A model generated the notes under the pieces. The model ran no database searches, was not told the origin of the DNA, and saw nothing but the letters and a program-made list of their open reading frames with translations. Shown one piece after another: positions 5,900 through 31,951 of a stretch of DNA of 32,071 nucleotides. The position numbers were made by a program, and so were the translations under genes. Every line of letters begins with the position of its first letter. Position 1 is the first letter of the stretch. This DNA comes from an uncultured virus (IMG/VR IMGVR_UViG_3300037466_002099) (taxonomy: Duplodnaviria; Heunggongvirae; Uroviricota; Caudoviricetes), in IMG/VR virus record IMGVR_UViG_3300037466_002099; one strand, written 5' to 3'.

Positions 5900-5915
5900 G
5901 TCGTGACCCTAGACT
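5900..5915 (+). promoter_or_regulatory. Putative phage late promoter (GTCGTGAC-CC-TAGACT)
   Basis: Copy of the motif repeated at transcription-unit starts; ATG at 5923 follows 7 nt after the -10-like hexamer. Confidence 0.75.
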
Positions 5916-5922
5916 CGGGGTT

Positions 5923-8900
5923 ATGACCAAAATTCTGTTCCTTAAAGCTGCCAGCATTCCGCCAGGAGCCCGCTGGATTACGGTCCACGCCGGGGGAAAT
6001 AAGGATGCCAAGGGTCAGCCGGTGCTGATCCAGCCAAACCCTGATGGCTCCGCTCATGTGATAGGCGGCGCAGGGGGTGCTCTCAACTATCTTAAGCTCC
6101 GTGCCGTCCGCTCCGAAGACGACTACAAGCGCGAGGCCGAGCAACGCCGCAAGGACAAGGCCGAGAAGCGCAAGGAGCAGCGCGCCGCCGACAAAGAGGC
6201 CGGCATCTACGAATCCAAGGCCAAGGCCAAAGAGAATCTGCGGCTGCAGCAGCAGGCGCACGAAAAGGAATTCATCCGCACCGTCGCGCAATCGATGGGC
6301 TGGGAGCCCAAGAGCCTGGAATTTCCCGAGCAGGATTACGCGCACCTGTCGGAAACCGCGCTCAGCAAGGTTGCAACGAAGCATCACCGCGAGCTACTGA
6401 GCCGCGCGCTGGATGCCGTCGAGATGCAGCGTCAACGGCTGGTGACCGACGCGGCCGCGCGCATGGAAGCCGGCATCGGCGAAATCCCGCTCGACGCCAA
6501 GGGCGCCGATACGCTGTCGGTCGAGGATATCGCGCCGGTGGCGCCGGCCAGCGGCGGGCTCGGTTTCCAGGCTGACTACAAAAACCGGGCGGAAGCGGCC
6601 GGGCTGTCGGAAGACGAGCTCAAGCGCGAGGCCGACGCGGCGCGCGCTGCCAAGCTGTCGCAGATGACCGACGCGCAGCGCCGGGCGGCCGTCACGCGCG
6701 GCGAGACCGCGAAGATGGTTCGCCAGGAGCTCCAAAACATCCGCGAGCCGATCGTCTCCGATGCCAAGGCGCAGCTCGTCGAGGCCAAAAAGGCAACCGA
6801 GCTCCTGAAGGCGCAAAAGCGGCTGCGGCAAATCCAGAAGAAGGCGCGCGACTTCAACGCCGAAATCGACAAGTCGGCCGCCGAGCCCAAGGCATTCGTG
6901 CTCGAGTACACCGCCGACCCGGACACCGACGCCAAGGTGGCCGAGGACATTGCCGGTGACCTGCGTACGATGAAGACGCAAGCTTTCCTGTCCGAGTTCA
7001 AGCGGCTGGCTGGCGAGCGGCCGGAGGAGACGCTGGGCAAGCACCTGGGCATCGGCGCCTACAACTCGATCAATTCCCTGGCGTTGGCCGTCGGCGGCGA
7101 GGCGCTGGTCGACCGCTCCGTTGTCGATGTGCTGGGCATCGCCGGCGCCGCGCAAGTGCTGGCCCGCCGGATCCATACCGACCTGCCGGATGATGTCGAG
7201 CGCATCACCGACGGCATGCAGGACTTCCATCTGCACCATTACATGCAGGCGAGCGAGGAGGCGCTGTCCGAGGCGCGCGACCTGATGGACGCGGCCAAGG
7301 AAATCGAGCTGGGCGAAGCGGCGACGGGCTCGGACCTGCAGTCGGCGCAGGAGCTCAACGCCAAGCGCCGGCGCGCGGTGAATGACGCGCAGAAGACGCT
7401 CGGGCAGGCACTCGGAGAGATGGAAGCGAACGCGGCAATTTTGGTCTCGCTGAAGCAGGGAAAAAAGGACAAGTTTCAGGTCTCGCTGGGCAAGATCAGC
7501 GCCGAGGATGCCATCCGCCAAGTTCGCGCGATCGGCCTGCAGCGCGGCGACTACACCATCGAGAACGTCGCCGGCGACACTTTCCTGACCGTCAACGGCA
7601 CCGGCCTGGACCGGCTCGCCAAGCCCGTCAACCGCGCCGATATCGAGCAGGTCAAGCGCAACCTCGATATCATCAACGGACGCCATGACGAGGACGGCTG
7701 GCTGCCGCTGGGCGTGGCGAACCGGCCGGATCTGGCGATGGACGTGAAGCCGGGCGTGGCGCCACGGCTGGCCGAGCCCTTCGCGCCCGGCGACGACCTC
7801 GAGCAGTCCTTGCGCGACTACATCGGCGGCCGCGCGGCCGACGGCGATGCGCCGGGCGATATCGTGGCTGATATCCAGTCGGCGGACTTCTTCCAAAAAG
7901 TCGGCTGGGAGCGATCGGAAGCGTACCGGCAGGCGTTGAACGCCGTCGCGCCGCTGAAGGACCAAGACGGAAAGATGCAGCGCGCCGAGGCGCTGGCTGA
8001 GCATTTCGACAAGTTGGCCGACCAGTTCGTGGCGAACCGCTACGGCGGCGAACGCTCGACCCTGAATCGGCAGAAATTCGCCGTCGATCAGAAATCCGTG
8101 GATGCGTTGCACCGCGCGCTGACCGAGACCCCGGAGGGCACAGCCGCCTACAAGCAGATCGGCGAGCTGGGGCCGCACGACCAGCGCGCGCTGCGCGAGT
8201 TCTTCTACAAGAACGTGGCGAAGGAAAGCCCGGACGCGGCCAAGCTGCGCGCCGAGCTCGAGGCGACCGAGCAGAACGAGCCGGAGCGCGAAACGACCGA
8301 CATGTTCGGAGAGGCGACGACCAATCCGGAATGGGCGGAGTGGAAAACCAGGCGCGACGAGCTGGCCGGCAAGGTCGGTGCCGCGTCCCTGACTTGGGGC
8401 AAGTACGTCGATACCATGCGCGGCAACGAAAAAGCCTACGAGGCCGTGCAGGATATCATCCGCTCGCGCGTGGCGAAATCGTTCGTCGACGCGCACAACA
8501 AGCTGAGCCCGGGCGCACCGCTGAAACTGGGCAAGGCGGTCGTGCGCAACAACCTGAACCACTTGGACGCGACCGACCCGGCGGCGCGCGAGGAGCGCAT
8601 GCAGAAAGAGCGCGAGCTGGTCGACAGCCTGCGCGAGCGCGTGCAAGGCCGGTATGCCTCGGGCAGCGTCGGCGACAAGCTGGACGCGGCGCGCGATCGG
8701 CAGGAAGCCTTCGAGCAGGCGCAGATGGGCTTCTTCGCCAACGAGGAGCCGGCCGCCGAGGCGACCGAGCGCACCCTGGCTGGCGACGAGCGGCACACAC
8801 TCGGCCATGAAGCCGAGCGCCAGATCGCCGGCATGATGGGTGTCGTCGGCAAGAACTTCCGGCCCGGTCAGCCGCTCCGTCTGTGGAATCCGGCCATGAG

Positions 8901-10452
8901 CGGCGGCAAGAACGCCGCCCGGCAACGGCTGGTGAAGCTGGTCGACGCCAACAAGCGCGTCGTCGCCGCCTTCGGTACCGGGTCCGGCAAGTCGCTGCTG
9001 CAGCTCGCCTCCTTTACGCATCTGCACCAGCAGGGCAAGGCCAAGCGCGGCTTGTTCCTCGTGCCGTCGATCGTGCAGGGGCAGTTCTCCGGCGAGGCGC
9101 TGCGCTACCTCGAGCCCGGCAAGTTCAACTGGCATATCGAGCCCGGTGCCAGCCGCGAGGAGCGGATTTCCGCCTACAAGAACCCAGAGCACCATTTCTG
9201 CGTGATGACGCACCAGTCGTTCCGCGACGACATGATGCACCTGGGCGCCAAGCATGCCGGCATCGCCGAGTCCGAGATGTCCGACCGACTGAACGCCATG
9301 ACGCCGGCCGAGCGCAAGGACTGGATGAAAGGCGTCTGTGAGCGCGAGGGCATCAACTTCGACTACCTGACTGTGGACGAGAGCCAGTACACACTGAACC
9401 GCGCCGGCAAGGAAAATTCCGGGCTGGCGAATGTGGTCGACGCGCTGTCCGCGCATACGCCGTACTACCTGACGGCTTCGGGCGACCCGGTGAAAAATGA
9501 CGCCTCCGAGGTCTATGACCTGATGCGCAAGATGGATCCGGACCGCTACGCCGACCGCGCCGCGTTCATGCGCCGCTACGGCGCCGATACCCTGGCGTCC
9601 AAGGACGCACTGAAGCGCGAGATGGCGCGCTACGTCTATCCGAGCCGCATCGACCCGGATGTGACTGCAAACCGCCGCGCCGAGACGGTCGAATTGTCGG
9701 ACGGGCAAAAATCGGCCCTGGCCGAGCTGGACCGCCATTTCAGCAATGCGCGGTTGTCGCGCATGCAGGGCAAGGTAGATGTCGAGGCCATGAAGGCGAT
9801 CTCGCCGAGCTCGTTCGCCGACGTGCCGGAGGACAAGCATGAGGCCGTCGCCAAGGACTTGCAGGCCAATCTCGGCATCCTGAAGTCGTCGGCGATCGCC
9901 CGGGTGATCAATTCCCATCCGGACAATGCCAAGATTGAGCACCTGTCGAAGCTGGCCGGCGAGCGCAAGGGCAAGCCGGGCGTGGTTTTTGCGCACTCGC
10001 TCGAGGCAGTCAACCGCATCAAGGAGCGACTGGAAAAGGACGGGCACCGCGTCGTCGTGCTGACCGGCGCCGACAGCTCCAAAGAAAAGGAGAAGAAGCG
10101 GCTTGCCTTCAACCCGGAGCAGGGCGAGGCCAGCGCCGATATCCTGATCGCCTCGGACGCGGGGGCAACTGGGATGAACATCCAGCGTGGGCAATGGCTG
10201 GTGAACGTTGACACGCCGCAAACCGCGATGACGCATGCGCAGAGGGGAGGAAGGATATACAGGACTGGCCAAACTCGAAATGTCGAGCTCATCGATTTAG
10301 TCGCTGATCATCCGGAGGAGCGTAAAGCTCGCGACAGACTTCAAAAGAAATATGCATTGCGAGAATTGATGACAAGCCCAATGGAAGGGCTTGATGACAC
10401 TGGAATTTCCTGGTTTATCAAGCAACGACAGGAGGCACAAACTTTCGTGTAG
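5923..10452 (+). CDS. Large SNF2/SF2 helicase-like protein (1509 aa) with ~990-aa helical N-terminal region; candidate virion-packaged protein
   Basis: C-terminal motifs AFGTGSGKS (Walker A), TVDESQ (Walker B variant), ASGDP, SDAGATGMNIQ, QRGGRIYRTGQ. Codon usage matches the region. N-terminus MTKILFLKA. Confidence 0.85.
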   Translation: MTKILFLKAASIPPGARWITVHAGGNKDAKGQPVLIQPNPDGSAHVIGGAGGALNYLKLRAVRSEDDYKREAEQRRKDKAEKRKEQRAADKEAGIYESKAKAKENLRLQQQAHEKEFIRTVAQSMGWEPKSLEFPEQDYAHLSETALSKVATKHHRELLSRALDAVEMQRQRLVTDAAARMEAGIGEIPLDAKGADTLSVEDIAPVAPASGGLGFQADYKNRAEAAGLSEDELKREADAARAAKLSQMTDAQRRAAVTRGETAKMVRQELQNIREPIVSDAKAQLVEAKKATELLKAQKRLRQIQKKARDFNAEIDKSAAEPKAFVLEYTADPDTDAKVAEDIAGDLRTMKTQAFLSEFKRLAGERPEETLGKHLGIGAYNSINSLALAVGGEALVDRSVVDVLGIAGAAQVLARRIHTDLPDDVERITDGMQDFHLHHYMQASEEALSEARDLMDAAKEIELGEAATGSDLQSAQELNAKRRRAVNDAQKTLGQALGEMEANAAILVSLKQGKKDKFQVSLGKISAEDAIRQVRAIGLQRGDYTIENVAGDTFLTVNGTGLDRLAKPVNRADIEQVKRNLDIINGRHDEDGWLPLGVANRPDLAMDVKPGVAPRLAEPFAPGDDLEQSLRDYIGGRAADGDAPGDIVADIQSADFFQKVGWERSEAYRQALNAVAPLKDQDGKMQRAEALAEHFDKLADQFVANRYGGERSTLNRQKFAVDQKSVDALHRALTETPEGTAAYKQIGELGPHDQRALREFFYKNVAKESPDAAKLRAELEATEQNEPERETTDMFGEATTNPEWAEWKTRRDELAGKVGAASLTWGKYVDTMRGNEKAYEAVQDIIRSRVAKSFVDAHNKLSPGAPLKLGKAVVRNNLNHLDATDPAAREERMQKERELVDSLRERVQGRYASGSVGDKLDAARDRQEAFEQAQMGFFANEEPAAEATERTLAGDERHTLGHEAERQIAGMMGVVGKNFRPGQPLRLWNPAMSGGKNAARQRLVKLVDANKRVVAAFGTGSGKSLLQLASFTHLHQQGKAKRGLFLVPSIVQGQFSGEALRYLEPGKFNWHIEPGASREERISAYKNPEHHFCVMTHQSFRDDMMHLGAKHAGIAESEMSDRLNAMTPAERKDWMKGVCEREGINFDYLTVDESQYTLNRAGKENSGLANVVDALSAHTPYYLTASGDPVKNDASEVYDLMRKMDPDRYADRAAFMRRYGADTLASKDALKREMARYVYPSRIDPDVTANRRAETVELSDGQKSALAELDRHFSNARLSRMQGKVDVEAMKAISPSSFADVPEDKHEAVAKDLQANLGILKSSAIARVINSHPDNAKIEHLSKLAGERKGKPGVVFAHSLEAVNRIKERLEKDGHRVVVLTGADSSKEKEKKRLAFNPEQGEASADILIASDAGATGMNIQRGQWLVNVDTPQTAMTHAQRGGRIYRTGQTRNVELIDLVADHPEERKARDRLQKKYALRELMTSPMEGLDDTGISWFIKQRQEAQTFV

Positions 10453-11269
10453 TGAGGCGCTTCCTTTTCGGTTCTGTCGAGAGCGCTTCTTCCGGCGTCA
10501 TTCCTTTAGCAAGGCGATACTGAATGGTCGCTTTGCTGAGTCCTGTTGCGCGAGCCCAACCGGCAAGCGTTAACGATTGGCCAAATGCGGAGACTTTGAA
10601 GTTGTCTCGCCGATTGTTTGCTTGCTCATATTTCGTCGCCCATCTACAATTTTCAGGAGAGTACCCCTTGGTGTTGTCCCTCCTATCTATCGACATGTCT
10701 GATGGCGGCTCTCCCATATCTGCCAAGAAATTTTCGAATGTGTGCCATCGTTCACAGACATTTATTCCGCGACCGGCATACGCAGAATAGGATTTGTGGT
10801 TAGGATCATAGCAGCGCTGCATCATGCAGCACCAGATATTATGTACTCGTTTCCCTGTCATTCCATGGCGACGGTTGAGTGGCCTCGCGTTTTTTGCTGC
10901 CACTTCCCTATTCAGACATCCGCACGATTTTGTGTTGCCTGATGTAAGTGCACCGTAATGAACCAGCTTTTCGGTTCCGCAGTCGCACTTGCAATTCCAT
11001 CTGGACTTAGCGCTCGTGCCGTAACCCGAATTCGGTCCACGAGACAACGCCACGAGTCGGCCGAACCTCTTCCCGGTAATATCTTTTGCCCTAAACCGAA
11101 GGCAACCGCACGATTTCGTCGTTCCTTCCTTCAAATGATGTGCTGCCGCGACGGTCGTGGCACCACAATCACAGACACAATGCCACTTGGCGATTTCGCC
11201 GACTTCGGACCAGCGGTGGGTGACAGTCAAGATGCCAAAGCGCTTACCGGAAAGGTCGTCAAGTTTCAT
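10418..11269 (-). CDS. Free-standing HNH homing endonuclease-like protein (283 aa)
   Basis: Two N-terminal repeats GKRFG.L...W.C.CDCG...TKSCGC, HNH-like core SIDRRDNTKGYSPENCRWAT..EQANN, C-terminal HTH-like segment. Lower GC than flanks; convergent 35-nt overlap with the helicase gene. Confidence 0.85.
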   Translation of the reverse strand: MKLDDLSGKRFGILTVTHRWSEVGEIAKWHCVCDCGATTVAAAHHLKEGTTKSCGCLRFRAKDITGKRFGRLVALSRGPNSGYGTSAKSRWNCKCDCGTEKLVHYGALTSGNTKSCGCLNREVAAKNARPLNRRHGMTGKRVHNIWCCMMQRCYDPNHKSYSAYAGRGINVCERWHTFENFLADMGEPPSDMSIDRRDNTKGYSPENCRWATKYEQANNRRDNFKVSAFGQSLTLAGWARATGLSKATIQYRLAKGMTPEEALSTEPKRKRLTTRKFVPPVVA

Positions 11270-11841: not shown

Positions 11842-11864
11842 AGCCGCCTCCGGGCGGCTTTTTT
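11842..11864 (+). terminator. Rho-independent terminator
   Basis: AGCCGCC-TCCG-GGCGGCT plus T run. Confidence 0.9.
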
Positions 11865-11888
11865 ATTGTCCGCATGCGCGCACGCAAA

Positions 11889-11904
11889 GTCGTGACGCCA
11901 TGAT
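11889..11904 (+). promoter_or_regulatory. Putative phage late promoter (GTCGTGAC-GC-CATGAT)
   Basis: Motif copy just after a terminator; ATG at 11911 is 6 nt downstream. Confidence 0.75.
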
Positions 11905-13484: not shown

Positions 13485-14948
13485 ATGTATCCGAACATTC
13501 AACTTCCCAATATTGCCGGCGGCACTTCCACGACCGGCGAGTTGGGCGCCCAGCAGTTCGAAGAGCTGCAGAAGGCATTGACGACCGGCTATGGCACGGA
13601 CGTTTCGCAGTTGACCGGCGGCGGCGCTCTGCGCATCCAGTCGCTCGACAAGACCATGATGGCGACCATTCAGGAGAACAAGCACTTCCGCCTGTTCAAC
13701 GAACTCGCCAAGAACAGCGCCGGCGCGACCGTCGACGAATGGACCGAGCAGTCCGGCGTCGGTGGCTTCCTGGGCGGCTCGACCAACACCGAAACCGGCA
13801 ACATCGCGTCGGCTCAGGGTACCTACGCTCGCCGCGTCGGTCTGGTCAAGTACCTGATGACCCGCCGCGAAGTGTCTTTCGTCTCCACGCTGGGCAACAA
13901 CATCGCCAGCTCCGAGGCGATCGAGCAGCAGGCCGGTGCCAAGCAGCTCTTGACCGACGCCGAATACCTGTCGTTCTACGGTGATTCGACCGTGGTGCCG
14001 ACCGAGTTCGACGGCATCTACGCGCAGATCGTCGCCGGCGTGGCCGCAGGACAAGTCGACGGCGGCAACATCCTCGACGCGCAGGGCCAGTCCCTCGCCT
14101 CGGTCAATCTGGTGAACCAAGCCGCCTCGCAGATCAGCCGCCGCGACAACTTCGGCACTCCGACCCACCTCTTCATGTCTCAGTTGACGCAAGCCGACTT
14201 CGACACGGGTCTGGATCCGGCCTTCCGCGTGCCGCTGACCAACGTCCCGAACGGCGGTATCTCGCTCGGCTCGCCGGTGAAGGGCATCCGTACCTCGTGG
14301 GGTGACATCGCCACGATGCCGGACGTGTTCATCAATGACGGCGATCAGGACGTGCCGTTCGAGGTGACCTATCCCGCCCTGGCTACCGCCAACACCACGA
14401 TGAAGCCGACCCTGGCGATCGACGCTTCGGTGACCGACGCTTCGTCGCAGTTCGGTGCCGGCCAAGCGGGTAATTACTATTACCTCGTGACCGGCGTCAG
14501 CGCTGCCGGCCAGTCCGACGGCCGCATCACCGCGCAGACCGCCGTGGCTGCTGGCAAGAAGGTCGTTCTGACCATCACCGCGTCCGGTGGCGGCCAAGAA
14601 ACCGGCTACGCGATCTACCGCTCGCGTCTGAACGGCACCAACACGCCGTCCGACTTCCGTCTGGTGGCTCGCGTTGCCAAGGCCGGCGGCACCACGACCT
14701 ACACCGATTACAACCGCGACATCCCGGGCACCACCAAGGCATTCGTGCTGAACATGACCCCGGGCGATCAGGCGATCAACTGGCGTCAGCTCTTGCCGAT
14801 GCTGAAGTTCCCGCTGTACCCGACCGTCGCGGCCACGATTCCGTGGGCTCAGTTGATGTTTGGCTACCTGCGCATCACCAAGCGACGGCACCACGCCATC
14901 ATCAAGAACATCCTGCCCAACGGCGCAAAGTGGAAGCCGTTTAACTAA
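13485..14948 (+). CDS. Major capsid protein (487 aa), Herelleviridae-like, with a beta-sandwich insertion
   Basis: KALTTGYGTD...GALRIQSLD N-terminus and SFYGDS...EFDGI segment recall SPO1/Twort/A511-type capsid proteins. Strong codon bias, RBS, position after protease and scaffold. Confidence 0.88.
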   Translation: MYPNIQLPNIAGGTSTTGELGAQQFEELQKALTTGYGTDVSQLTGGGALRIQSLDKTMMATIQENKHFRLFNELAKNSAGATVDEWTEQSGVGGFLGGSTNTETGNIASAQGTYARRVGLVKYLMTRREVSFVSTLGNNIASSEAIEQQAGAKQLLTDAEYLSFYGDSTVVPTEFDGIYAQIVAGVAAGQVDGGNILDAQGQSLASVNLVNQAASQISRRDNFGTPTHLFMSQLTQADFDTGLDPAFRVPLTNVPNGGISLGSPVKGIRTSWGDIATMPDVFINDGDQDVPFEVTYPALATANTTMKPTLAIDASVTDASSQFGAGQAGNYYYLVTGVSAAGQSDGRITAQTAVAAGKKVVLTITASGGGQETGYAIYRSRLNGTNTPSDFRLVARVAKAGGTTTYTDYNRDIPGTTKAFVLNMTPGDQAINWRQLLPMLKFPLYPTVAATIPWAQLMFGYLRITKRRHHAIIKNILPNGAKWKPFN

Positions 14949-15576: not shown

Positions 15577-15611
15577 AAACCGCCTGACGGGAAACCGTCC
15601 GGCGGTTTTTT
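15577..15611 (+). terminator. Rho-independent terminator
   Basis: AAACCGCCtGACGG-GAAA-CCGTCcGGCGGTTT stem plus T run. Confidence 0.85.
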
Positions 15612-15615
15612 ACAT

Positions 15616-15631
15616 GTCGTGACGCGAAAAT
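15616..15631 (+). promoter_or_regulatory. Putative phage late promoter (GTCGTGAC-GC-GAAAAT)
   Basis: Motif copy directly after the terminator, ~50 nt upstream of ATG 15681. Confidence 0.7.
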
Positions 15632-15680
15632 TCTATCGACAACGCGGTGCTGCGCACCTCCATTTTTCAAAGGGTAGATC

Positions 15681-18299: not shown

Positions 18300-19465
18300 G
18301 AACCGATTTTCGAGGGTTCCTATTTGATGGCGCGGCGGCGCAACTCGGCGAAATCCCGCTGCAGTCGACCTCGGCGTCGACCACAATCAACTGCACCGTC
18401 GGCGCCGCGACGGATGCCGGCTTAACCGCTTCCGTCTCTCTTCCGACAAAGGTCAACGCGACCGTCGGTGCCGTTGCGGACACTGGCAAGACTGCATCTG
18501 TCGTCCTCACGACCAAGATCAACGCCACAGCCGGAGCGGTGGCTGACGCCGGTCGCACGGCGTCGGTGAGCCTGCCAACGAAAATTAGCGCTACCGTCGG
18601 CGCAGTCGCGGACGCAGGCAAAACTGCCTCGGTTTCGCTCCCGACAAAGGTCTCTGCGACCGTTGGCGTTGCGGCTGACGCTGGCAAGACCGCATCCGTC
18701 GTTCTTCCGACGAAGATCAATGCCACGGTTGGTGCGGTGGCTGATGTCGGCCGCACCGCGTCGGTCAGCCTGCCGACGAAAGTGAATGCGACGGTCGGCG
18801 CCGCTGCCGATTCGGGGAAAACAGCATCGGTCACGCTACCGACGGCGGTTGCCGCCACAGTGGGCGCGGCGGCCGACAACGGCAAGACGGCCACGGTCTC
18901 GCTGACGACGCGCATCACGGCGACTACGGGTGCGGCGGTAGATGCCGGGCGTACGGCGGCGATATCTAACCCGACCAATATCGCAGCAAGCGCCGGCGCG
19001 GCCGCCGATACAGGCAAGCCCGCCTCGGTCAGCTCTGGCAACTCGATTGGCTGCGTCCCTGGTACGGTTGCGGCTGCCGGTCTGCCGGCGACGGTCATCC
19101 ATCCGACCAACATTGCCGCCGGCGCGGGCGCCTCGGCCGCTGCCGGGCGGACCGCATCGGTTGCCGCCGGCTCGTCGATTTCTTGCTCGGTGGGCGTGGC
19201 GAGCGCCGCCGGCCTGCCTGCCTCCGTCGGCCAGGGCACGCTCATCGGCTGCGGTGCTGGCGCGCTGGCGGCCGCCGGCCGAACGGCGTCGATCGTGCTG
19301 CCGACGACTATTGCCGCCCATGTCGGTGCGGCGGTCGATATCGGCTTGTTGGCAGCCATCCAAACCGGCGTGCACAGCAACCCGCCGGCGGGGCGGACGT
19401 TCCGTATATCGGGCAGCAATCGTCGTGACCGTATTCTGGCAAGGAACCGAATTTTCCGAGCTTGA
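18296..19465 (+). CDS. Repeat protein (389 aa) with 15 x 22-aa repeats; candidate fibre shaft
   Basis: Consensus TK[IV]NATVGA[VA]ADAG[KR]TASVSLP from residue 29 to 358. Confidence 0.8.
   Translation: MRTDFRGFLFDGAAAQLGEIPLQSTSASTTINCTVGAATDAGLTASVSLPTKVNATVGAVADTGKTASVVLTTKINATAGAVADAGRTASVSLPTKISATVGAVADAGKTASVSLPTKVSATVGVAADAGKTASVVLPTKINATVGAVADVGRTASVSLPTKVNATVGAAADSGKTASVTLPTAVAATVGAAADNGKTATVSLTTRITATTGAAVDAGRTAAISNPTNIAASAGAAADTGKPASVSSGNSIGCVPGTVAAAGLPATVIHPTNIAAGAGASAAAGRTASVAAGSSISCSVGVASAAGLPASVGQGTLIGCGAGALAAAGRTASIVLPTTIAAHVGAAVDIGLLAAIQTGVHSNPPAGRTFRISGSNRRDRILARNRIFRA
18380..19369 (+). repeat. Degenerate coding tandem repeat, 15 x 66 bp
   Basis: 990 bp = 15 x 66 with no indels; conserved at protein level, diverged at synonymous positions. 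Confidence 0.85.
19422..19437 (+). promoter_or_regulatory. Putative phage late promoter (GTCGTGAC-CG-TATTCT) inside the 3' end of the repeat gene
   Basis: Motif copy ending 29 nt upstream of ATG 19467. Confidence 0.65.
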
Positions 19466-21212: not shown

Positions 21213-21224
21213 TAAAATTTGAGC

Positions 21225-22034
21225 ATGCTAAAGACATGCGGAATTTATCTCATTAAATGCACACGCCCTGACGGGCTTCCGCTATATTACGTCGGGCAGG
21301 CTATCAACATCCGCGACAGGTGGAATGAGCACAAGCGCGACCTGCGCAGTGGGTCGCACCGCAACCGGCATATGCAAAATGTTTGGCGCAAGTACGGCGA
21401 GTCGGCATTCTCTTTGGTTGTGCTCGACGCTTGTGCCGCAGATGATCTCGACGAGAGTGAGCAATGGTGGCTCGATGAGATGCATGGTTATCTGCGATGC
21501 ATGAATATTGCAAAAGACGTTGCAAATCCACAACGAGGCATTCCGATCAGCGCAGAAAACAAAGCCAAGATCGGCGCCGCAAATCGCGGGAAAAAGCGAA
21601 CTGATGATATGCGACAGCGGCTCAGCGCCGCGACGCAGGGAAGGGTGTACGGCGCCGAGGTATATCAGAAAATCGGGGCCGCTCTGCGAGGCAAGAAAAG
21701 GCCCGAGCATGTGTGCGAGAAGATTTCGGCGGCGCACAAGCTAAAGGGCACAAAGCCAAGCATAGAGGCCATTCAAAAATCTCTCGAAAGCCGTCGATCC
21801 AGCATGCGTTCTCCCGAAATACTGGCTACTCTTCGAAAAAACGCGATGGACAAAGCCCGGCCAGTAATTGCGATCTGCATGAAAACCGGAGAAGTGAAGC
21901 GCTATGAAAGCATCGCGGCAACGTCTCTCGACGGATTCACCCCACAAAACGTCTGGCAACTGCTAAACGTGCGGGGCCGAACCCATCGAGGCCACATGTT
22001 CCAGTATGCGGACGCTACTTCAGCGTCCGCTTGA
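21225..22034 (+). CDS. Free-standing GIY-YIG homing endonuclease with NUMOD3-like repeats (269 aa)
   Basis: GIYLI...YYVGQA..IRDRWNEH core, repeats K.KIGAANRGKKR, C-terminal IENR1/NUMOD1-like HTH. Atypical codons; TGaTAAAAT extended -10 at 21210-21218. Confidence 0.88.
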   Translation: MLKTCGIYLIKCTRPDGLPLYYVGQAINIRDRWNEHKRDLRSGSHRNRHMQNVWRKYGESAFSLVVLDACAADDLDESEQWWLDEMHGYLRCMNIAKDVANPQRGIPISAENKAKIGAANRGKKRTDDMRQRLSAATQGRVYGAEVYQKIGAALRGKKRPEHVCEKISAAHKLKGTKPSIEAIQKSLESRRSSMRSPEILATLRKNAMDKARPVIAICMKTGEVKRYESIAATSLDGFTPQNVWQLLNVRGRTHRGHMFQYADATSASA

Positions 22035-22869
22035 CGGCTTCGCCGAAAGCTTGCACAGCCATCGGCTGCATTTCATCGGCGACCCTCTTGGCAAGAAATA
22101 GCCCCGGCTTTGGCGGTACTACCCACCCCTGAGAGCCTTCGATCATGATCCTGAAGGTCAAGTACGTCGAGTAACGCTTGCCGCCGGGTGTGCGTGTGTC
22201 GAACCTATACATTCCCGCATACCGCTTTTTTTCTGCGTCGGAAAGGCCATCAATTTCAGACGTGTCGAGCTTTTGCCCCCAGTTATAGTGATTTTTCGGG
22301 ACTAGGAACTGACTTTTTGTCTTGGGGTTTGAGGCGAATGGCGTCTGATTTTTCAGCGGCCGCATCCCATAAGTAGGGTGTAGTGCGGTTACCTCGCCAG
22401 CAGGACGCTGACTCTGGCCGTCGACTTTGCTGGCCGTCATGTCCTTTGCGAGATCATACACCGACGCGGGCATAGATGGGGAATGCGCGTCATTGCCCGG
22501 GGTCGACTGGCGAAACGGGATCACTAGGAATCGCCGACCGTCCTTCGTCTGTCGGACCTTCATGCTCGTATTGAGCATGACCTTCAAATCCTTGGCAGGA
22601 CGACCCGTCTCGATCTCGTTGGCATAGCGGTAATCGCTCGAGACAACTGCCGAGAAATCGCCCGTCATCTGCCATTGGATTGATGCGGTATAGGCATCCT
22701 TCTCGCCGCTCCAAAGCTTCGCCCGCTGCACGGCTTCCTGCCAATTGATCGAGGTCTGCTGGGCGACCGCGCGAACCGCCTGATGCAAAAGCGGCATGAC
22801 CGCCTTGTCAACCACGCCGGCTGCCTGCATCACGCCGGACAGGTCGACCGAAATTCTGTATTCCGCCAT
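22015..22869 (-). CDS. Putative neck/tail-completion protein (284 aa), inverted relative to the module
   Basis: RBS AAGGAGG and its own motif promoter. Segments YANEIETG, KDGRRFLVIPFR and YLTFRIM..GWVVP resemble the protein encoded between stopper and terminator genes in such modules. Confidence 0.6.
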   Translation of the reverse strand: MAEYRISVDLSGVMQAAGVVDKAVMPLLHQAVRAVAQQTSINWQEAVQRAKLWSGEKDAYTASIQWQMTGDFSAVVSSDYRYANEIETGRPAKDLKVMLNTSMKVRQTKDGRRFLVIPFRQSTPGNDAHSPSMPASVYDLAKDMTASKVDGQSQRPAGEVTALHPTYGMRPLKNQTPFASNPKTKSQFLVPKNHYNWGQKLDTSEIDGLSDAEKKRYAGMYRFDTRTPGGKRYSTYLTFRIMIEGSQGWVVPPKPGLFLAKRVADEMQPMAVQAFGEAVKRTLK

Positions 22870-22887
22870 CCGAACCTCCTTGGCGGA

Positions 22888-22903
22888 AGTCTATCGTCAC
22901 GTC
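22888..22903 (-). promoter_or_regulatory. Putative phage late promoter, minus strand (GACGTGAC-GA-TAGACT)
   Basis: One-mismatch motif copy with the same hexamer as the 5900 copy, upstream of RBS and ATG 22869. Confidence 0.65.
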
Positions 22904-22914
22904 CACGGCGGCGC

Positions 22915-22930
22915 GTCGTGACGCGATCAT
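22915..22930 (+). promoter_or_regulatory. Putative phage late promoter (GTCGTGAC-GC-GATCAT)
   Basis: Motif copy; ATG at 22937 is 6 nt downstream. Confidence 0.7.
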
Positions 22931-22936
22931 ATTGTC

Positions 22937-23984: not shown

Positions 23985-25700
23985 ATGAGCGTCTTTTTCA
24001 ACGGCCGCCTTTGGATCTCTCCCGCCACGATGTCGGCGGTGGATGATTCTGCAATGGGCAACAAGAATCTTACCGTCGGTAACGTGGTGGCGCTGATCGG
24101 CGCGTCCGAGGGCGGCGAGCCCAACACGGCGCTGCGCTTCGGCAGCGCGGAAGAAGCGGAAGCCGTTCTGCGTAGCGGCGAGCTGCTGACCGCTATCAAG
24201 ATGGCCTTCGACCCGAGCTCCGAAACCGGCAGTCCGGCGGAGATCGTCGCTGTGCGCGTCAATCCTGCCGTTCAGGCTTCGCTGTCCCTGCTCGACGGCA
24301 GCAGCAATCCGGTCATCACCCTGACCTCGAGCGACTACGGCCTGTACACGAACCAGATCAAGGTCAAGGTCGAATCCGGCTCGACCTCCGGCAAGAAAGT
24401 CACTGCGCAGCTCGGCAACGACTACTATTCGCAGGACAATCTGGCGCGCAACGCCTTCCAGATCCAATACACCGGCGTCGCGCTGACTGCCGTCATGTCG
24501 ATTTCCAACTCGGCAATTGTTCTGCAGGCACCCAGCGGCTCGACTGTGGCGACGATCGACCTCAACACCTACAAGACGGTGCAGCAGGTCGTCGACCGCA
24601 TCAACTCGGTCGCCAACTTTACCGCCTCGGTGCTGGACGGCAACGGCCAGACCGCCGCTTTGAACGGCCTGGACAGCGCGACCTCGGTCGATGTCAAGAC
24701 CAGCGCCGCCACCGCCACGGCCAACCTGCAAGCCGTCGTCGACTGGATCAACAGCATCGGCGAGGGCTTCATCGATGCGGCCCGCGTCACGAATGCCGGC
24801 ACGCTGCCGGCCAACATCGGCTTTACCTACCTATCCGGCGGCTCGGACGGCACGATCACCAATACGCAGTGGAGCAACGCTTACACGACGCTGCAGACGG
24901 TCGATGCGCAGTGGGTGACGCCGGTATCGAGCGACCCGGCCATCCATGCCATGAACGACACGCACTGCGCGTTCATGAGCAATGTTGGTCGCCGCGAGCG
25001 TCGCGGTCTCTGCGGCATGCCGCTGAGCTCGTCCGATAGCGCCGCTCTGACCGCCGCCAAGGCGCTCAACAGTGACCGCACGTCGTTGGTGCACCTCGGC
25101 CACTACGACTATGACGACAACGGCAATCTGACGCTGTTCGCGCCCTACATGACGGCCGCCCGCATCGCGGGTGCTTTCGCCGGCCTGAACCCGGGCGAGC
25201 CGATGACCAACAAGTCGATCAAGGTGCGCGGCCTCGAGCGCGACCTGCGCAACCCGACCGATACCGACGTGCTGATCACCGGCGGCGTGCTGTGCGTCGA
25301 GAATACGTCGAACGGTTACAAGGTCGTCAAGTCCATCACCACTTGGCTGAACAACGACAATTACAACCGTGTCGAAGTCTCGACCGGCGTTGCCCTGGAC
25401 TTCACGGTGCGTAACGTGCGCGAGGCGCTGGACGTGCTGCGCGGCCAGAAAGGCGGCCCGCTGATCCTGCGCCGCGCGGCCAGCATCACCGAATCCGCGC
25501 TGCGCAAGCTGTCGGTGCCGGAGCCGAACGGCCCGGGCGTGCTGGTCGGTGACGCCGACAACCCGCCCTACAAGAACATCCGCGCCTTCGTCGAGGGCGA
25601 TGTGTTGGGCGTCAGCTTCCAGTGCTCGCCGGCCATCGGCGTGAACTACATCCCTGTCAGCGTCTTTGCCGTGCCTTTCAGCGGCTCGGCGACGGCATAA
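23985..25700 (+). CDS. Contractile tail sheath protein (571 aa)
   Basis: VALIGASEGGEP, DYGLYTNQIKV, YLSGGSDG, EPMTNKSI, LITGGVLCVE..GYKVVKSITT; size and position before the tube gene. Confidence 0.92.
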   Translation: MSVFFNGRLWISPATMSAVDDSAMGNKNLTVGNVVALIGASEGGEPNTALRFGSAEEAEAVLRSGELLTAIKMAFDPSSETGSPAEIVAVRVNPAVQASLSLLDGSSNPVITLTSSDYGLYTNQIKVKVESGSTSGKKVTAQLGNDYYSQDNLARNAFQIQYTGVALTAVMSISNSAIVLQAPSGSTVATIDLNTYKTVQQVVDRINSVANFTASVLDGNGQTAALNGLDSATSVDVKTSAATATANLQAVVDWINSIGEGFIDAARVTNAGTLPANIGFTYLSGGSDGTITNTQWSNAYTTLQTVDAQWVTPVSSDPAIHAMNDTHCAFMSNVGRRERRGLCGMPLSSSDSAALTAAKALNSDRTSLVHLGHYDYDDNGNLTLFAPYMTAARIAGAFAGLNPGEPMTNKSIKVRGLERDLRNPTDTDVLITGGVLCVENTSNGYKVVKSITTWLNNDNYNRVEVSTGVALDFTVRNVREALDVLRGQKGGPLILRRAASITESALRKLSVPEPNGPGVLVGDADNPPYKNIRAFVEGDVLGVSFQCSPAIGVNYIPVSVFAVPFSGSATA

Positions 25701-26143: not shown

Positions 26144-26158
26144 TCGGTCCGCTACAGG

Positions 26159-26187
26159 AAAAGCCCGCTCCGGCGGGCTTTTTTTTT
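26159..26187 (+). terminator. Rho-independent terminator (possibly bidirectional)
   Basis: AAAAGCCCGC-TCCG-GCGGGCTTTT with a 9-T run. Confidence 0.9.
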
Positions 26188-26203
26188 GTCGTGATCGGAC
26201 AAT
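26188..26203 (+). promoter_or_regulatory. Putative phage late promoter (GTCGTGAT-CG-GACAAT)
   Basis: One-mismatch motif copy abutting the terminator T run, upstream of the chaperone gene. Confidence 0.65.
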
Positions 26204-26243: not shown

Positions 26244-26609
26244 ATGAGCCGCACCCCTAACGCGAGCGATTTTCATGTCGATGTTGATGGCATCGGCCGG
26301 TTTGCCTTCGGCCGCCGCACGATCAACGACACCTACAAGATCCGCGCCGCCTATGCGCGTCTGACCGACGGGAATTATGACGAGGATGGCAATGTCGGCG
26401 ATATTTCCGCGATCGCGCTGGTGACCATCCGTGTGCTGCTCGTCGCGCAGCCGGACGGATTCGATATCGAAATGCTCGACCCGCTGCTCGACGATAAGTG
26501 GGAAGAGAAGATCATGAAGGTGTGGACCGCGCTTCGCGATAAGGAGCTCTCCTTTCGCCCAAAACCAACGCAAGCGGGCGAAGGATCGGGCGAAGCAGCT
26601 AGCCAATAG
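26244..26609 (+). CDS. Tail assembly chaperone, short form (121 aa)
   Basis: RBS GGAG at 26234-26237 and ATG at 26244; lies between tube and tape measure genes. Confidence 0.7.
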   Translation: MSRTPNASDFHVDVDGIGRFAFGRRTINDTYKIRAAYARLTDGNYDEDGNVGDISAIALVTIRVLLVAQPDGFDIEMLDPLLDDKWEEKIMKVWTALRDKELSFRPKPTQAGEGSGEAASQ

Positions 26610-26829
26610 TTACGAGCTTTGGTTCCGCGACAAATACAATTTGGCGCCGACCGACCCGCGCTTCCTAGACGCGACGCCTGAGCAAATTGAAACGGAGTAT
26701 TGGGCTTACCAGTACCGGGACAACAAGGTGCAGGAAGAAATCGAAGACGATGATTTCAACCTCGAAGCGGTGCTGGCAGAGATTGAGAATAACCCGGGCG
26801 AGTGGGAAGACGTGATTAAAGATGACTGA
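26557..26829 (+). CDS. Tail assembly chaperone C-terminal extension, probably reached by a +1 frameshift (fusion ~194 aa from 26244)
   Basis: +1 frame is open 26518-26829 with no ATG and reads AQNQRKRAKDRAKQLANSYELWFRDKYNLAPTDPRFLD...; TCC_TTT_CGC at 26550-26558. Confidence 0.6.
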   Translation, partial: AQNQRKRAKDRAKQLANSYELWFRDKYNLAPTDPRFLDATPEQIETEYWAYQYRDNKVQEEIEDDDFNLEAVLAEIENNPGEWEDVIKDD

Positions 26830-29536
26830 CGGCATAAAAATCCCAGTATCGGCAGATGTCGGCTCGTTTCAGTCCGGAACGGCGCAGGCCGGCAAGAGCC
26901 TTGAGCAGCTTGGCAAGACGGCCGAAAAGGTCGCGCAGAAGAAGATCAACTTGATCGACGAAAAGGCGCTGGATGCCAGCATGCGGCGCCTTGAAAAGCG
27001 ATTCGAGCAGTTCTTCAAGCGGGTCGAGGACGGGGTAAAGAAGGTCAATTCCGCTTCAGGAGGCGGCGCGGCCGGTGCGCCGTCGCCTTCGTTGCCGCCT
27101 CCGCCTGCGCTGCCGGCGCCTCAAGATCGGCGTCCGCGCCGTCCGGTGAATCGCTATCGCTACACTAATTCGCCGGAGTTCTCGGATGTCGGCCATAACC
27201 TGCTGAGCGGGTTTGGTGGCGGCTTCGGCCAGATCGCCTCCTATGGCGTGCGCGGTGCACGGGCAGGCATTCGCGACGCCGAGGCGTCGGGCGGCTCCGG
27301 CGGCCTGGGTGGCTTGGGCGGCTTGGCTAAGGGGCTCGGCATCGGCGCGCTCGCGTTCGGCGCCTATAAGCTGGCCGGCGCCGCGTCCGAGGGCGTCGAT
27401 ATGGCGAAGGAACGGGCCAATTCGCTCGATGTCCTCAAGCGCCAAATGGGCGACCTGGGCGTCAGCTTCGAAAGTCTGAAGGTCGTCAGCGAGTCCGCCG
27501 CGCAAGGCATGGGCATCAACTCCAAGGAGGCCGCCGACCTCGCTCAGCAGTTCAACAAGCTGAGCCGTGGCGGCGAGAGCGGCTTGGGGCTTGCCGAATC
27601 GGTGCGAACCGGCGTGGGGCTGTCGCGGGCCTATGGTCTCGACCCGTCCGCCGGCGTGGGCTTCCTCGGCGGTATGCGCAACATCGACCCGAAGCAGAAT
27701 AACCGCGAGCTCGCGCTGATGCTGGCCGAGGCCATCAACAAGTCCGGCATGAGCGCACGGGCGGACGAGCTCATGCAGGCGATCCAGTCCTATGCCGCCA
27801 TGACCTCACGCATGAGCCTGTCGTCGCCGAACGTGTCCGCCTACGCGGGCGCCTATGCGGGCCTTATGGGATCGGGTTACGCCGGCATGACGCCAGACGT
27901 TGCAGCCGGCATCCTCTCGCAAGCCAACTCTGCCGTGATGAGCATGGGTGGCGCTGGCGAGGCGGGGCAAAATTTCATCCTGCAGGCGATGCAGCGCCAG
28001 GGTGCCATTGACCCGATCGCGGCACGCGCCCTGGCGGAAGGCGGCATGTTCGGCACGCGGCGGAGCGTGTTCGGCGGCGGCCCGCTGGCGAAATACTTCG
28101 GCGGGCTCACGGGTGGAAGCGGCGCCGATGTCACCACTATCGATTCCATCAAAGCCTACCTCGACCGCCAGGGCATGAGCCCCGAGCTGAAGCTGGACGC
28201 CTTCAAGAACCTGATGCACTTGTCGTCCTACTCCAACGCGGCCGCGCTGATGGACATGCAGTCGCCGACGCTGGGGCGCCTCTCCGGCATGATGAGCAAG
28301 TACGGCGTCGACCCGAATAGTCTCAATCCCGAGGGGCTGCAGGGGCTCGCGCGTATCGCGGACGCTTCCGGCAAAGGCGAGCTCTCGTCTATCGCCGACA
28401 TGTATATGCGCCGCACCGGCAAGGGCGCGCTGAACGACGACGAGAAGCGGACGCTGGAATCCGCCAAGGGCATGGACGAGGAGTCCTTGCGCGGCGCCCT
28501 GATCAAGATCGCCGCCAGCAAGGATCAGGAGCAAACCGACGCGACGCGCATGCGCGACAGCCTGAAGTCGATCGAGAACGCGCAGATTACGGTCGGCGAT
28601 AAGCTGCTGGTGCCGCTGATGGCGATGAAGGACTTGCTCGGCTACATGGCCGGCGGCGGAAAGAAGTCGCAAAAGCAGATCATGACCGATATCGCCAACC
28701 TCGAATACGAGGATGGCGCTGGGCCGCTGAAAAAGCGAAAGGCGGAAGTCGAGGCACGGATTGCTGACTCGCAAAATCGCCTGTCGAACATGGACTTCAA
28801 TAAAAAACACCCGTTCGGCGGCCTTTTCGCTCCGGATCCTGAGTTTTACAAGGGCGTCCAAGACAAACTTGCGGCTGACCAGTCGGAGCTGTCCGGCATC
28901 AACGGTCAGCTCGACAAGCTGGATGCCGAGCGCCAGCAGCGCTTGGCGCCGGTGATGACGGACAGCTCCAAGTGGCGGGCTTACCAAGGGCAGGGCAATA
29001 CTCTGTTCGATGCGCTGATCCGCGCGGAATCCGGCGGCCGGCACTATGCCAAGGATGGCAGCCTGCTTTCCTCGAACAAGGGTGCGCTCGGCATCACGCA
29101 GGTCATGCCGAAGACGGGCGCCGACCCGGGCTATGGCGTGACCCCTCTGCGAAACCAGACGGAAGAAGAATACCGCCGCTTCGGCCAGGATTACCTGAGC
29201 GCGATGCTGAGCGAGTTCGGAGGTGACCAGCGCAAGGCGTTGGCCGCTTACAACGCCGGCCCGGGCGCGGTGCAGGATGCCGTTCGCAATGGCGGCAGCG
29301 GATGGCTCGATAGGCTGCCCAAGGAAACGCAGAACTACGTGTCGTCGATCATGCAGGATGCGATGGGCAGCGCCTCGCAGATCCCAACCTCGGCGCCGGC
29401 GTCGGCGGGCGGCACCGGCGAGACAACGCATGTCGTGCGCAATGAAATCGTGCTGAAGTCGTCGGACGGCAAAACCTCGACGATATCGAATGACGTGGTG
29501 ATCGCGGTCCCGCGTGGCGCCGGGACCAAGAGGTAA
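26822..29536 (+). CDS. Tape measure protein with C-terminal lytic transglycosylase (SLT) domain (904 aa)
   Basis: A/G-rich helical body; SLT motifs ALIRAESGG, GALGITQVMP, ALAAYNAGPG, LPKETQNYV; follows the chaperones. Confidence 0.88.
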   Translation: MTDGIKIPVSADVGSFQSGTAQAGKSLEQLGKTAEKVAQKKINLIDEKALDASMRRLEKRFEQFFKRVEDGVKKVNSASGGGAAGAPSPSLPPPPALPAPQDRRPRRPVNRYRYTNSPEFSDVGHNLLSGFGGGFGQIASYGVRGARAGIRDAEASGGSGGLGGLGGLAKGLGIGALAFGAYKLAGAASEGVDMAKERANSLDVLKRQMGDLGVSFESLKVVSESAAQGMGINSKEAADLAQQFNKLSRGGESGLGLAESVRTGVGLSRAYGLDPSAGVGFLGGMRNIDPKQNNRELALMLAEAINKSGMSARADELMQAIQSYAAMTSRMSLSSPNVSAYAGAYAGLMGSGYAGMTPDVAAGILSQANSAVMSMGGAGEAGQNFILQAMQRQGAIDPIAARALAEGGMFGTRRSVFGGGPLAKYFGGLTGGSGADVTTIDSIKAYLDRQGMSPELKLDAFKNLMHLSSYSNAAALMDMQSPTLGRLSGMMSKYGVDPNSLNPEGLQGLARIADASGKGELSSIADMYMRRTGKGALNDDEKRTLESAKGMDEESLRGALIKIAASKDQEQTDATRMRDSLKSIENAQITVGDKLLVPLMAMKDLLGYMAGGGKKSQKQIMTDIANLEYEDGAGPLKKRKAEVEARIADSQNRLSNMDFNKKHPFGGLFAPDPEFYKGVQDKLAADQSELSGINGQLDKLDAERQQRLAPVMTDSSKWRAYQGQGNTLFDALIRAESGGRHYAKDGSLLSSNKGALGITQVMPKTGADPGYGVTPLRNQTEEEYRRFGQDYLSAMLSEFGGDQRKALAAYNAGPGAVQDAVRNGGSGWLDRLPKETQNYVSSIMQDAMGSASQIPTSAPASAGGTGETTHVVRNEIVLKSSDGKTSTISNDVVIAVPRGAGTKR

Positions 29537-29539
29537 GCC

Positions 29540-31018: not shown

Positions 31019-31926
31019 ACACTTACGATAGCATCGAAATCGGACTTGTCGTCGCGACGTATCCGGCCGGCAACTCGGTCGACGTTCTCCTCGACCGGGA
31101 CGGCAGCCGGCTCAGCAACGTGCAGGTTGCCGTGCCGATGGGCTCGGACATATGCGGCGTGCTCGACCTGCCGGATATCGGCGGCCCGGCCGATGATAGC
31201 CGATGGAACATTACGGCCAGCCGCACGCGCTATATCCGCGCCATCGTGCAGTTCTACCGTGGTATGCCGATCGTGACGAACTTCCTGCTGCCACAGGTCT
31301 GCCAAGTCACGTTCGACGAGAAAAATCGCCGCATCGATCGCCATGCGTCCGATGTCTACACCTCGATCGACGACCTGGGGAACTATGAGCTAGCCTTCCC
31401 GAACGGAAGCTATCTTCGCATCGGAACCTCGCCGGCGCATGAAGACCTGACGGCCAGGGATTTCGACAAAAAATGGGCGATTACCCGCAACACCAGCAAT
31501 TCACTGTATTTCCATTACACGCACAAGAACGGCGGCTTCGCGGTCACCACGGTCGAGATTGACCCGTCCGGCAATATTAAGCTGTTCGGCGAGGGAAATC
31601 TCACGGCGACCATCAACGGCAACGTGACCGCGACCGTGGGCGGGAATGTGCATGCGACAGTTTCCGGCACCATGACCGCCGATGTTACCGGAGCGGTGAC
31701 CATAAACGCCCCCGCCGGCACCACGATCAACGGCCCGCTTACAGTCAACGGGCTCTTGACCTATACCCAAGGCATGGCGGGATCGGGCGGCGGCGGCAAC
31801 ACGGCCACGATCAACGGCAATGTGACGGTGACCGGCGGCGACGTAACGGCCGACGGCAAGAGCCTGAAGACGCACAAACACGGCGGCGTCACCACGGGCG
31901 GCGGCCAGACGGGCGTGCCCGTCTAA
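31015..31926 (+). CDS. Baseplate central spike (gpV/gp45-like, 303 aa)
   Basis: N-terminal OB-like region, beta-helix repeats (GNLTATIN-GNVTATVG-GNVHATVS) and C-terminal HxH metal site SLKTHKHGGV. Confidence 0.85.
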   Translation: MNTYDSIEIGLVVATYPAGNSVDVLLDRDGSRLSNVQVAVPMGSDICGVLDLPDIGGPADDSRWNITASRTRYIRAIVQFYRGMPIVTNFLLPQVCQVTFDEKNRRIDRHASDVYTSIDDLGNYELAFPNGSYLRIGTSPAHEDLTARDFDKKWAITRNTSNSLYFHYTHKNGGFAVTTVEIDPSGNIKLFGEGNLTATINGNVTATVGGNVHATVSGTMTADVTGAVTINAPAGTTINGPLTVNGLLTYTQGMAGSGGGGNTATINGNVTVTGGDVTADGKSLKTHKHGGVTTGGGQTGVPV

Positions 31927-31935
31927 GGCTGATTT

Positions 31936-31951
31936 GTCGTGACGTTACGAT
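31936..31951 (+). promoter_or_regulatory. Putative phage late promoter (GTCGTGAC-GT-TACGAT)
   Basis: Motif copy; ATG at 31958 is 6 nt downstream. Confidence 0.75.

Follow-up and report, generated by a model that had tools for sequence, protein, structure and literature searches.

A 16-base signal before virion and cargo genes in a family of temperate myoviruses, a putative class of late promoters

Eight sites among cargo, head and tail genes of a myovirus

The DNA analysed here, hereafter the window, is the whole 32,071-nucleotide stretch of an uncultured virus (IMG/VR record IMGVR_UViG_3300037466_002099, Caudoviricetes), and the element in question is a 16-base signal composed of an octamer, typically GTCGTGAC, two spacer bases and a hexamer NANNNT. 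The window comes from a myovirus and spans its cargo, head and tail genes. A gene model of 29 open reading frames (ORFs) was built for it, in which the genes are ordered as follows: DarB-like methylase/helicase, Ulx-like protein, helicase of 1509 amino acids (aa), head protease, major head protein, tail sheath, SLT-domain tail protein and baseplate parts. An earlier note on this DNA had proposed that eight copies of the signal mark a phage-specific late regulon. All eight copies are indeed present, and they are given here as putative promoters 1 to 8, with the genes that follow them and the intrinsic terminators that precede some of them (distances in nucleotides, nt).

5900..5915, + strand: promoter 1, GTCGTGAC cc TAGACT; ATG at 5923, 7 nt after the hexamer; leaderless messenger predicted
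5923 (start), + strand: gene after promoter 1, a 1509-aa helicase-like cargo gene
11889..11904, + strand: promoter 2, GTCGTGAC gc CATGAT; ATG at 11911, 6 nt after the hexamer; leaderless messenger predicted
11911 (start), + strand: gene after promoter 2, head maturation protease; the operon includes the major head protein gene, 13485-14948
15616..15631, + strand: promoter 3, GTCGTGAC gc GAAAAT; ATG at 15681, 49 nt on
19422..19437, + strand: promoter 4, GTCGTGAC cg TATTCT; within the last 44 nt of ORF 18296-19465
19467 (ATG), + strand: gene after promoter 4, fibre/adaptor-like, starting 29 nt past the hexamer
22888..22903, - strand: promoter 5, GACGTGAC ga TAGACT; gene start 18 nt on
22015-22869, - strand: gene after promoter 5, the single inverted gene, with an AAGGAGG ribosome site
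22915..22930, + strand: promoter 6, GTCGTGAC gc GATCAT; ATG at 22937, 6 nt after the hexamer; leaderless messenger predicted
23985-25700, + strand: tail sheath gene, included in the promoter 6 operon
26188..26203, + strand: promoter 7, GTCGTGAT cg GACAAT; ATG at 26244, 40 nt on, with a GGAG ribosome site
26822-29536, + strand: 904-aa gene with SLT domain, included in the promoter 7 operon
31936..31951, + strand: promoter 8, GTCGTGAC gt TACGAT; ATG at 31958, 6 nt after the hexamer; leaderless messenger predicted; its gene extends past the end of the window
5600..5629, + strand: intrinsic terminator that follows the Ulx-like gene and precedes promoter 1 by ~270 nt
11842..11865, + strand: intrinsic terminator, hairpin and U run, ending 24 nt before promoter 2
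15577..15614, + strand: intrinsic terminator, hairpin and U run, directly before promoter 3; -23.2 kcal/mol, z -4.7
26156..26187, + strand: intrinsic terminator, hairpin and 9-U run abutting promoter 7; -20.4 kcal/mol, z -4.4

The exact octamer GTCGTGAC has six matches in the window (5900, 11889, 15616, 19422, 22915 and 31936), all on the + strand, against 1.05 expected, and none of 100 shuffles reached six. When GTCGTGACNNNANNNT was searched with at most one mismatch, ten matches were obtained against 1.85 expected, a number again reached by none of 100 shuffles. Eight of these ten are the promoter-like sites, including the minus-strand copy at 22888-22903 (GACGTGAC) and the copy at 26188 (GTCGTGAT). 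The other two are one-mismatch copies of the full motif located within ORFs, with no start on the same strand nearby: 11154-11169 on the + strand (GTCGTGGC) and 16500-16515 on the minus strand (GTCATGAC), the latter antisense. The 16500-16515 copy is also present in the related locus G001, which says nothing about its conservation because G001 is a 9.3-kb fragment nearly identical to the window.

Placement of the eight sites is regular. A gene start on the same strand lies just downstream of every one of them, and all are oriented with their gene, including the inverted one, as the earlier note had it; from hexamer to start codon the distances are 7, 6, 49, 29, 18, 6, 40 and 6 nt for sites 1 to 8. 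Seven sites are wholly intergenic in a window where intergenic DNA amounts to 1254 of 32,071 bases (3.9%; binomial P ~1e-9), the exception being site 19422, which falls within the final 44 nt of the upstream ORF. Three sites, at 11889, 15616 and 26188, follow intrinsic terminators, again in agreement with the note; the folding energies of the hairpins are respectively -15.6, -23.2 and -20.4 kcal/mol, with z values from -3.5 to -4.7. Promoters 5 and 6 stand back to back and serve divergent genes, with 11 nt separating their boxes in a gap of 67 bp (22870-22936).

The hexamer, always two bases after the octamer, has A at its second and T at its sixth position (A2 and T6) in all eight sites. A TG one base before the hexamer, which would make an extended -10 element, is found at none of them. 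Canonical -35/-10 promoter-like sites occur at chance level in the window (6 against 5.2 expected, and 5 against 3.7), and none of the eight sites is among the consensus matches that have a TTGACA-like -35 element 16-18 nt upstream. The observation, that is, eight sites with this placement and this enrichment, is confirmed. To it we add a property absent from the earlier note: at four of the eight sites (5900, 11889, 22915 and 31936), an ATG is found 6-7 nt after the hexamer, and leaderless messenger RNAs are therefore predicted.

In the 49 nt that separate promoter 3 from the ATG at 15681, we also noticed a short GC hairpin (15646-15666) with a T-rich stretch behind it, perhaps an attenuator, perhaps a product of chance.

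Conservation of the signal in the phage family

The signal is not peculiar to the window phage. It marks virion, packaging and lysis genes in a family of ~90-kb temperate myoviruses, whose G+C content ranges from 42 to 71% and whose members include PHB04, Dolphis, ECML-606-1 and many uncultured relatives. The nearest named phage to the window is Bordetella phage PHB04, with a major head protein 49.5% identical; next come Aeromonas ST4, Pseudomonas Dolphis, Jeremy and Touem01, Escherichia ECML-606-1, Enterobacter phiT5282EW, Yersinia fHe-Yen8-01 and Morganella Mecenats66, and Thermus phages are more distant (~36% identity for the same protein). In IMG/VR, 68 related loci were collected, many of them in 80-95-kb contigs with direct terminal repeats. 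The family is considered temperate because an integrase is present in relatives.

PHB04 contains 11 exact octamers, all of them on the gene strand and 10 followed by the hexamer, which precede baseplate, tail, protease, helicase, portal and holin genes. The strand specificity by which the earlier note wanted its reading checked extends to the family. Five complete relatives together have 42 copies of the full motif on the gene strand and a single one on the opposite strand, with none for a reversed-pattern control; in four GenBank phages, 44 sites were on the gene strand versus none on the other; and for the pattern GTCGTGA-N4-ANNNT in 24 near-complete genomes, the dominant strand has 222 matches, the opposite strand 12 and the reversed-pattern control 9. 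Copies are dispersed, 8 to 14 per genome, each before late-type genes. The site upstream of the protease gene is retained in most of the 68 related loci, including those from phages with 42% G+C.

We then pooled sequences and retained 241 unique octamers. A hexamer with A2 and T6 follows 201 of them at a spacer of 2 nt, while any other spacer gives at most 21 (just 17 for a spacer of 4), so that the fixed spacing reported by the note for the window is that of the family. The absence of a shared -35 element, which it had also reported, holds in this larger sample, where no conserved position was detected upstream of the box, at -35 or elsewhere. The octamer is oriented relative to the hexamer: GTCGTGAC is followed by it 254 times, and the reverse complement 18 times. 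Finally, among 204 unique full sites, an ATG begins 6 nt after the hexamer at 76 and 7 nt after it at 39, other offsets being represented by 0 to 8 sites each, and this ATG opens at least 50 codons at 112 of the 204 sites, compared with 11 at control offsets.

The last base of the octamer varies by clade. High-G+C phages have C there, enteric and pseudomonad phages T, and a relative with 43% G+C has A or G. When this last base is T, the next one is G at 16 of 18 sites (counted by hand), giving an extended -10 TGn in the same register. The relatives with T are Dolphis, Touem01, ST4 and fHe-Yen8-01; the T-variant of the window, at 26188, has C as next base. In the 43% G+C relative, hexamers approach TATAAT. 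Such variant boxes were missed by a crude k-mer enrichment, and were recognised by reading the upstream regions of orthologous genes.

A literature search of limited coverage found no published description of the GTCGTGAC-N2-hexamer signal, and the words "promoter" and "motif" are absent from the Mecenats66 paper.

Outside the subject of promoters, the window contains at 21219-22034, amid virion genes, a gene resembling GIY-YIG homing endonucleases, with a C-terminal part similar to helix-turn-helix (HTH) or HNH domains. It looks like an insertion, because the flanking genes, gp016 and gp015, are adjacent in PHB04.

Proposed mechanism, candidate factors and alternatives

From these sequence patterns we infer promoter activity, the start site, late timing, dependence on a factor and the identity of that factor. 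The hexamer NANNNT would be a minimal sigma70-type -10 element occupying -12 to -7, an assignment made because the A2/T6 hexamer, the TGn register and the ATG spacing all fit it; A2 and T6 of a -10 element are the two bases captured by sigma region 2. The octamer GTCGTGAC would then lie at -22 to -15, with no -35 element, and transcription would start 7 nt past the T of the hexamer. At four of the eight window sites the start base would be the A of the ATG itself, and the messengers would be leaderless. A phage protein would bind the octamer and substitute for the -35 contact of the host holoenzyme. Such a factor is invoked because the hexamer alone is too weak and because the octamer is constant across phages of hosts with very different G+C contents.

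That the 16-base signal is a phage-specific promoter class appears very probable to us. The need for a phage-encoded factor is probable too, with less assurance, and the complete proposal, in which the eight sites form one promoter class for virion and cargo genes, used by a host sigma70-type holoenzyme together with a phage factor at the octamer, is the one we favour as reasonably likely. The earlier note had read the sites as a promoter class dependent on an activator or alternative sigma factor. This reading is supported by the comparative evidence, "late" and "factor-dependent" being the two words in it that we still infer from sequence. The note had also placed the gene of the factor outside the window, which agrees with what we find: there is no candidate factor among the window genes.

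We looked for candidates in complete relatives. Pfam recognised no sigma factor or RNA polymerase among the 67 non-structural ORFs of the complete relative G003. ORFs of this genome were called by a simple script and looked for in six further genomes, complete or nearly so. If the packaging and virion block is left aside, just two G003 genes occur in all five motif-bearing genomes compared, and both are absent from the motif-less genome G009. Their products, named here A (174 aa) and B (117 aa in G003, with a core of ~90-117 aa), are small zinc-binding proteins; neither is encoded in the window. Invariant Cys and His residues number ten in A, and form a CxxC...CxxC ribbon and a CCC motif in B. 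The two genes are usually adjacent, and in G003 they are the first genes of a transcription unit that continues into the terminase genes. Over the 24 family genomes, A and B are found in the same 22, and the two genomes devoid of them have no site. The corresponding table of A/B presence versus sites (21/1/0/2) gives a Fisher P of ~0.011, calculated by hand, which is weak evidence because the genomes are related.

An AraC-type protein of 150 aa, present in G003 and PHB04, was also considered as the activator, and was dropped since it is absent from ECML-606-1, G005, G007 and G008. It is a protein with two HTH motifs, found near the terminase genes in some relatives (6482-6934 of L079, in G003, and gp048 of PHB04).

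The distribution of A reaches beyond phages. It has 871 clusters of homologues. Among GenBank phages it is confined to 10 records, all from this family, and it is also found in contigs assigned to alpha-, beta- and gammaproteobacteria. Neither A nor B was detected in the Thermus relatives. Around A homologues in bacterial contigs (758 kb), the motif was counted 63 times, versus once for the control. It lies directly upstream of the A gene itself in 8 of 48 bacterial loci; in two of these eight, the ATG comes 6 nt after the hexamer and a back-to-back partner site is present, like in the window at 22888-22930, and in five of the eight A is the sole gene of the family within 10 kb.

Two bacterial contigs, L141 and L143, carry this back-to-back pair upstream of A homologues. 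L141 is a Paraburkholderia elongata contig; at 6759-10597 it combines a 200-aa homologue of A, which has a motif promoter of its own, with the csy3-csy4 end of a type I-F CRISPR-Cas locus ~1.6 kb away.

Similarity searches gave little indication of what A and B are. Sub-threshold matches to an N-terminal winged helix were obtained for 3 of 24 long A homologues. Structure models of A and B (predicted local distance difference test, pLDDT, of 79 and 75 respectively) had no clear match, the best Foldseek E value being 0.32. With VIA, the best Z was 4.4 for A, and for B 4.7 with Elf1 and 3.7 with the zinc ribbons of TFIIS and topoisomerase. A sequence-profile search of the PDB returned only matches with E values of at least 0.13, and the ESM Atlas only unnamed clusters.

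Several points weigh against the proposed mechanism and against these candidates. No RNA run was found to carry the window sequence, nor were transcript 5' ends found for this phage or its close family. A conserved component of the host could read the box instead of a phage protein. Neither Pfam nor PHROG gave a match for A or B, which fall in no recognised DNA-binding family or fold. Their absence from G009 and G011 is confounded, these genomes being the most divergent. G007 has both A and B, and yet a changed box, (T/C)CGGGAC, which in this single case would also fit a co-variation of A/B with the box. Mecenats66 has A with just 2-3 weak sites. Last, a B homologue in Yersinia phage fHe-Yen8-01 (2037-2381 of L104) is annotated "particle associated protein", an annotation that would suit B as a virion protein rather than a regulator; should the label have a proteomic basis, virions may contain B. 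A search for the paper behind the label found none.

Taking both sides together, the designation of A and/or B as the factor is tentative, with chances that we place a little short of even. More speculative is the full proposal that the zinc pair A/B is a new late-transcription specificity factor acting at -22 to -15 and causing host sigma70 to fire from a bare A2/T6 hexamer, so that half of the late messages would begin at AUG, in a system portable across alpha-, beta- and gammaproteobacteria and autoregulated in some elements. We hold it to be less likely than not.

Other explanations of the signal were weighed against the same evidence. A divergent sigma-like factor of the phage, A or another orphan, might read the entire 16 bp with the host core polymerase and without host sigma70, on the model of gp55 of T4, which reads TATAAATA. 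Such a factor would account for the lack of a -35 element and for a conserved element present only around -10 to -22; A is conserved, specific to the family and of no known family, and divergent phage sigma factors escape profile searches. However, A2/T6 and TGn (at 16 of 18 sites where base 8 is T) are what primary sigma factors read, and the drift of hexamers to TATAAT in the 43% G+C relative is expected if the host sigma reads the hexamer. Moreover, the model of A mixes strands and helices and has zinc sites, whereas sigma domain 2 is all-helical, and the Pfam sigma models matched nothing in the 67 G003 ORFs. We judge this explanation improbable.

The sites might also be ordinary host-dependent promoters in which no phage protein intervenes, the octamer being read by the host holoenzyme, through spacer or upstream contacts, or by a conserved alternative sigma factor or activator of the host. 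In favour of this, the hexamer includes the two bases that matter most to sigma70, and a -35 element can be dispensed with in promoters that have an extended -10, as some of the variants do. But phages of Bordetella, Pseudomonas, Aeromonas, Yersinia and Escherichia all have the octamer unchanged, as do uncultured relatives of 42-71% G+C; the TG of an extended -10 is missing from all eight window sites; and to our knowledge the box resembles no host sigma consensus. In addition, relatives without A and B are also without the box, though they have kept homologous virion genes. An explanation by the host only is quite unlikely.

An element acting at the RNA level, either a processing site that creates leaderless messages or the binding site of a translational activator, has a precedent in Com, a zinc-finger protein of phage Mu. 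It would make sense of the ATG spacing, fixed at about half of the sites, and A and B are zinc proteins that may prefer either nucleic acid. However, little RNA would get past the intrinsic terminators that directly precede three of the sites; sites 29-49 nt away from start codons with their own ribosome sites do not fit a translational role; the 67-bp gap at 22870-22936 must provide two promoters in any case; and A2/T6 is a signature of DNA melting. We therefore hold an RNA element to be very unlikely. As for a repressor operator or another DNA site (packaging, replication, partition) merely located between genes, for which the intergenic position and the nearly palindromic octamer (GTC-GT-GAC) could be invoked, it is hardly tenable given the strict orientation to the gene and hexamer (254 versus 18; 222 versus 12), a fixed ATG distance that would be meaningless for such sites, and the dispersion of 8-14 copies over each genome, always ahead of late-type genes.

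Significance, and comparison with known late promoters

In the reading that we favour, with a phage factor at the octamer and host sigma70 at the hexamer, the signal is an activator-type phage late promoter without a -35 element, to which it adds systematic leaderless starts and a named candidate pair. It provides a simple rule for recognising where late transcription units lie, and which start codons are the true ones, in a widespread and barely studied family of ~90-kb temperate phages, whose hosts are Proteobacteria associated with soil, plants and animals. Many of the leaderless start codons, having no ribosome site, will be placed wrongly by gene callers. The signal also points to an unfamiliar way of redirecting the host RNA polymerase, and its reader should be a portable phage protein, because the box is identical in phages of very different hosts. 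With two candidate proteins and cultured phages of Pseudomonas putida and Escherichia coli, the question is directly answerable. A compact, host-independent pair of promoter and activator yielding leaderless messages would be a possible expression tool.

Late promoter classes that are phage-specific, lack a usable -35 element and depend on phage proteins are known from T4 (gp55/gp33/gp45), P2 (Ogr) and Mu (C). T4 late promoters are read by a sigma factor of the phage itself, and consist only of TATAAATA. Ogr is a small zinc-finger activator; Ogr and C bind farther upstream, at about -55 and at -35 to -50. We know of no box at -22 to -15 in the late systems of T4, P2 or Mu, nor of systematic leaderless starts in any of them.

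Only one relative, a distant one, allows a comparison with transcript data. The Thermus phages Lalka27b and Lalka27a match the window major head protein at 35.6% identity. According to a preprint on Lalka27a (bioRxiv 10.64898/2026.04.20.719267), the late promoters of this phage have no -35 element and a consensus of their own, TAGGGT, with C conserved at -25. Of 16 that were predicted, half had a start supported by short-RNA sequencing, 6 nt downstream of the -10 element, and leaderless transcripts are in the majority. The preprint also describes the phage as having neither sigma factor nor RNA polymerase, and its authors propose a phage factor (bioRxiv 10.64898/2026.04.20.719267). By analogy, these data support the -10 and leaderless logic that we propose for the window signal; the TAGGGT consensus differs from GTCGTGAC-N2-NANNNT.

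The resemblance concerns cargo as well. In the window, the DarB-like methylase/helicase, the Ulx-like protein and the 1509-aa helicase, of superfamily 2 (SF2), are encoded consecutively (2-10452), and the virion proteins of Lalka27a are reported to include a DarB homologue and a large helicase (bioRxiv 10.64898/2026.04.20.719267). This analogy suggests that the genes at 2-10452 may be an injected anti-defence cargo expressed from promoter 1.

A further parallel is with phage P1, to which the earlier note had already pointed. Seven late promoters annotated in the GenBank record of P1 were extracted (LPmat, LPpro, LPlyz, LPdar, LPs, LPsit and LPpac). The analogy stands for the architecture: P1 late promoters and the window signal share a -10 element with A2/T6, the lack of a -35 element and a short conserved box just upstream, and in P1 as in the family many copies precede morphogenesis, lysis and cargo genes. 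The core GTGAC of the box is even common to both, and the DarB-like and Ulx-like genes of the window are a further likeness to P1; when the 29 window ORFs were compared by tblastn with the first 50 kb of P1, DarB was the only match.

The analogy fails for the box, the spacing and the factor. The P1 box is a 9-bp sequence, AAGTGACTT, placed 4 nt before the hexamer, whereas the window box is the 8-bp GTCGTGAC, 2 nt before it. The seven annotated P1 promoters conform to A(A/T)(G/A)T(G/T)A(C/T)T(T/A)-N4-hexamer, with a TANNNT hexamer, and none of the seven has an ATG 6-7 nt after it. P1 late transcription uses Lpa (gp10), described as a sequence-specific DNA-binding activator that acts with the RNA-polymerase-bound host protein SspA (PMC1891329). 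Homologues of Lpa (phrog_1704) were found in none of the five complete relatives at E values up to 1, under conditions where control genomes do match, nor did tblastn with P1 Lpa find a credible match in PHB04, the window or the 68 loci (best E 0.22). From its sequence, the signal appears to work like a P1 late promoter, with a box, a spacing and a putative reader of its own that set it apart from the P1 class.

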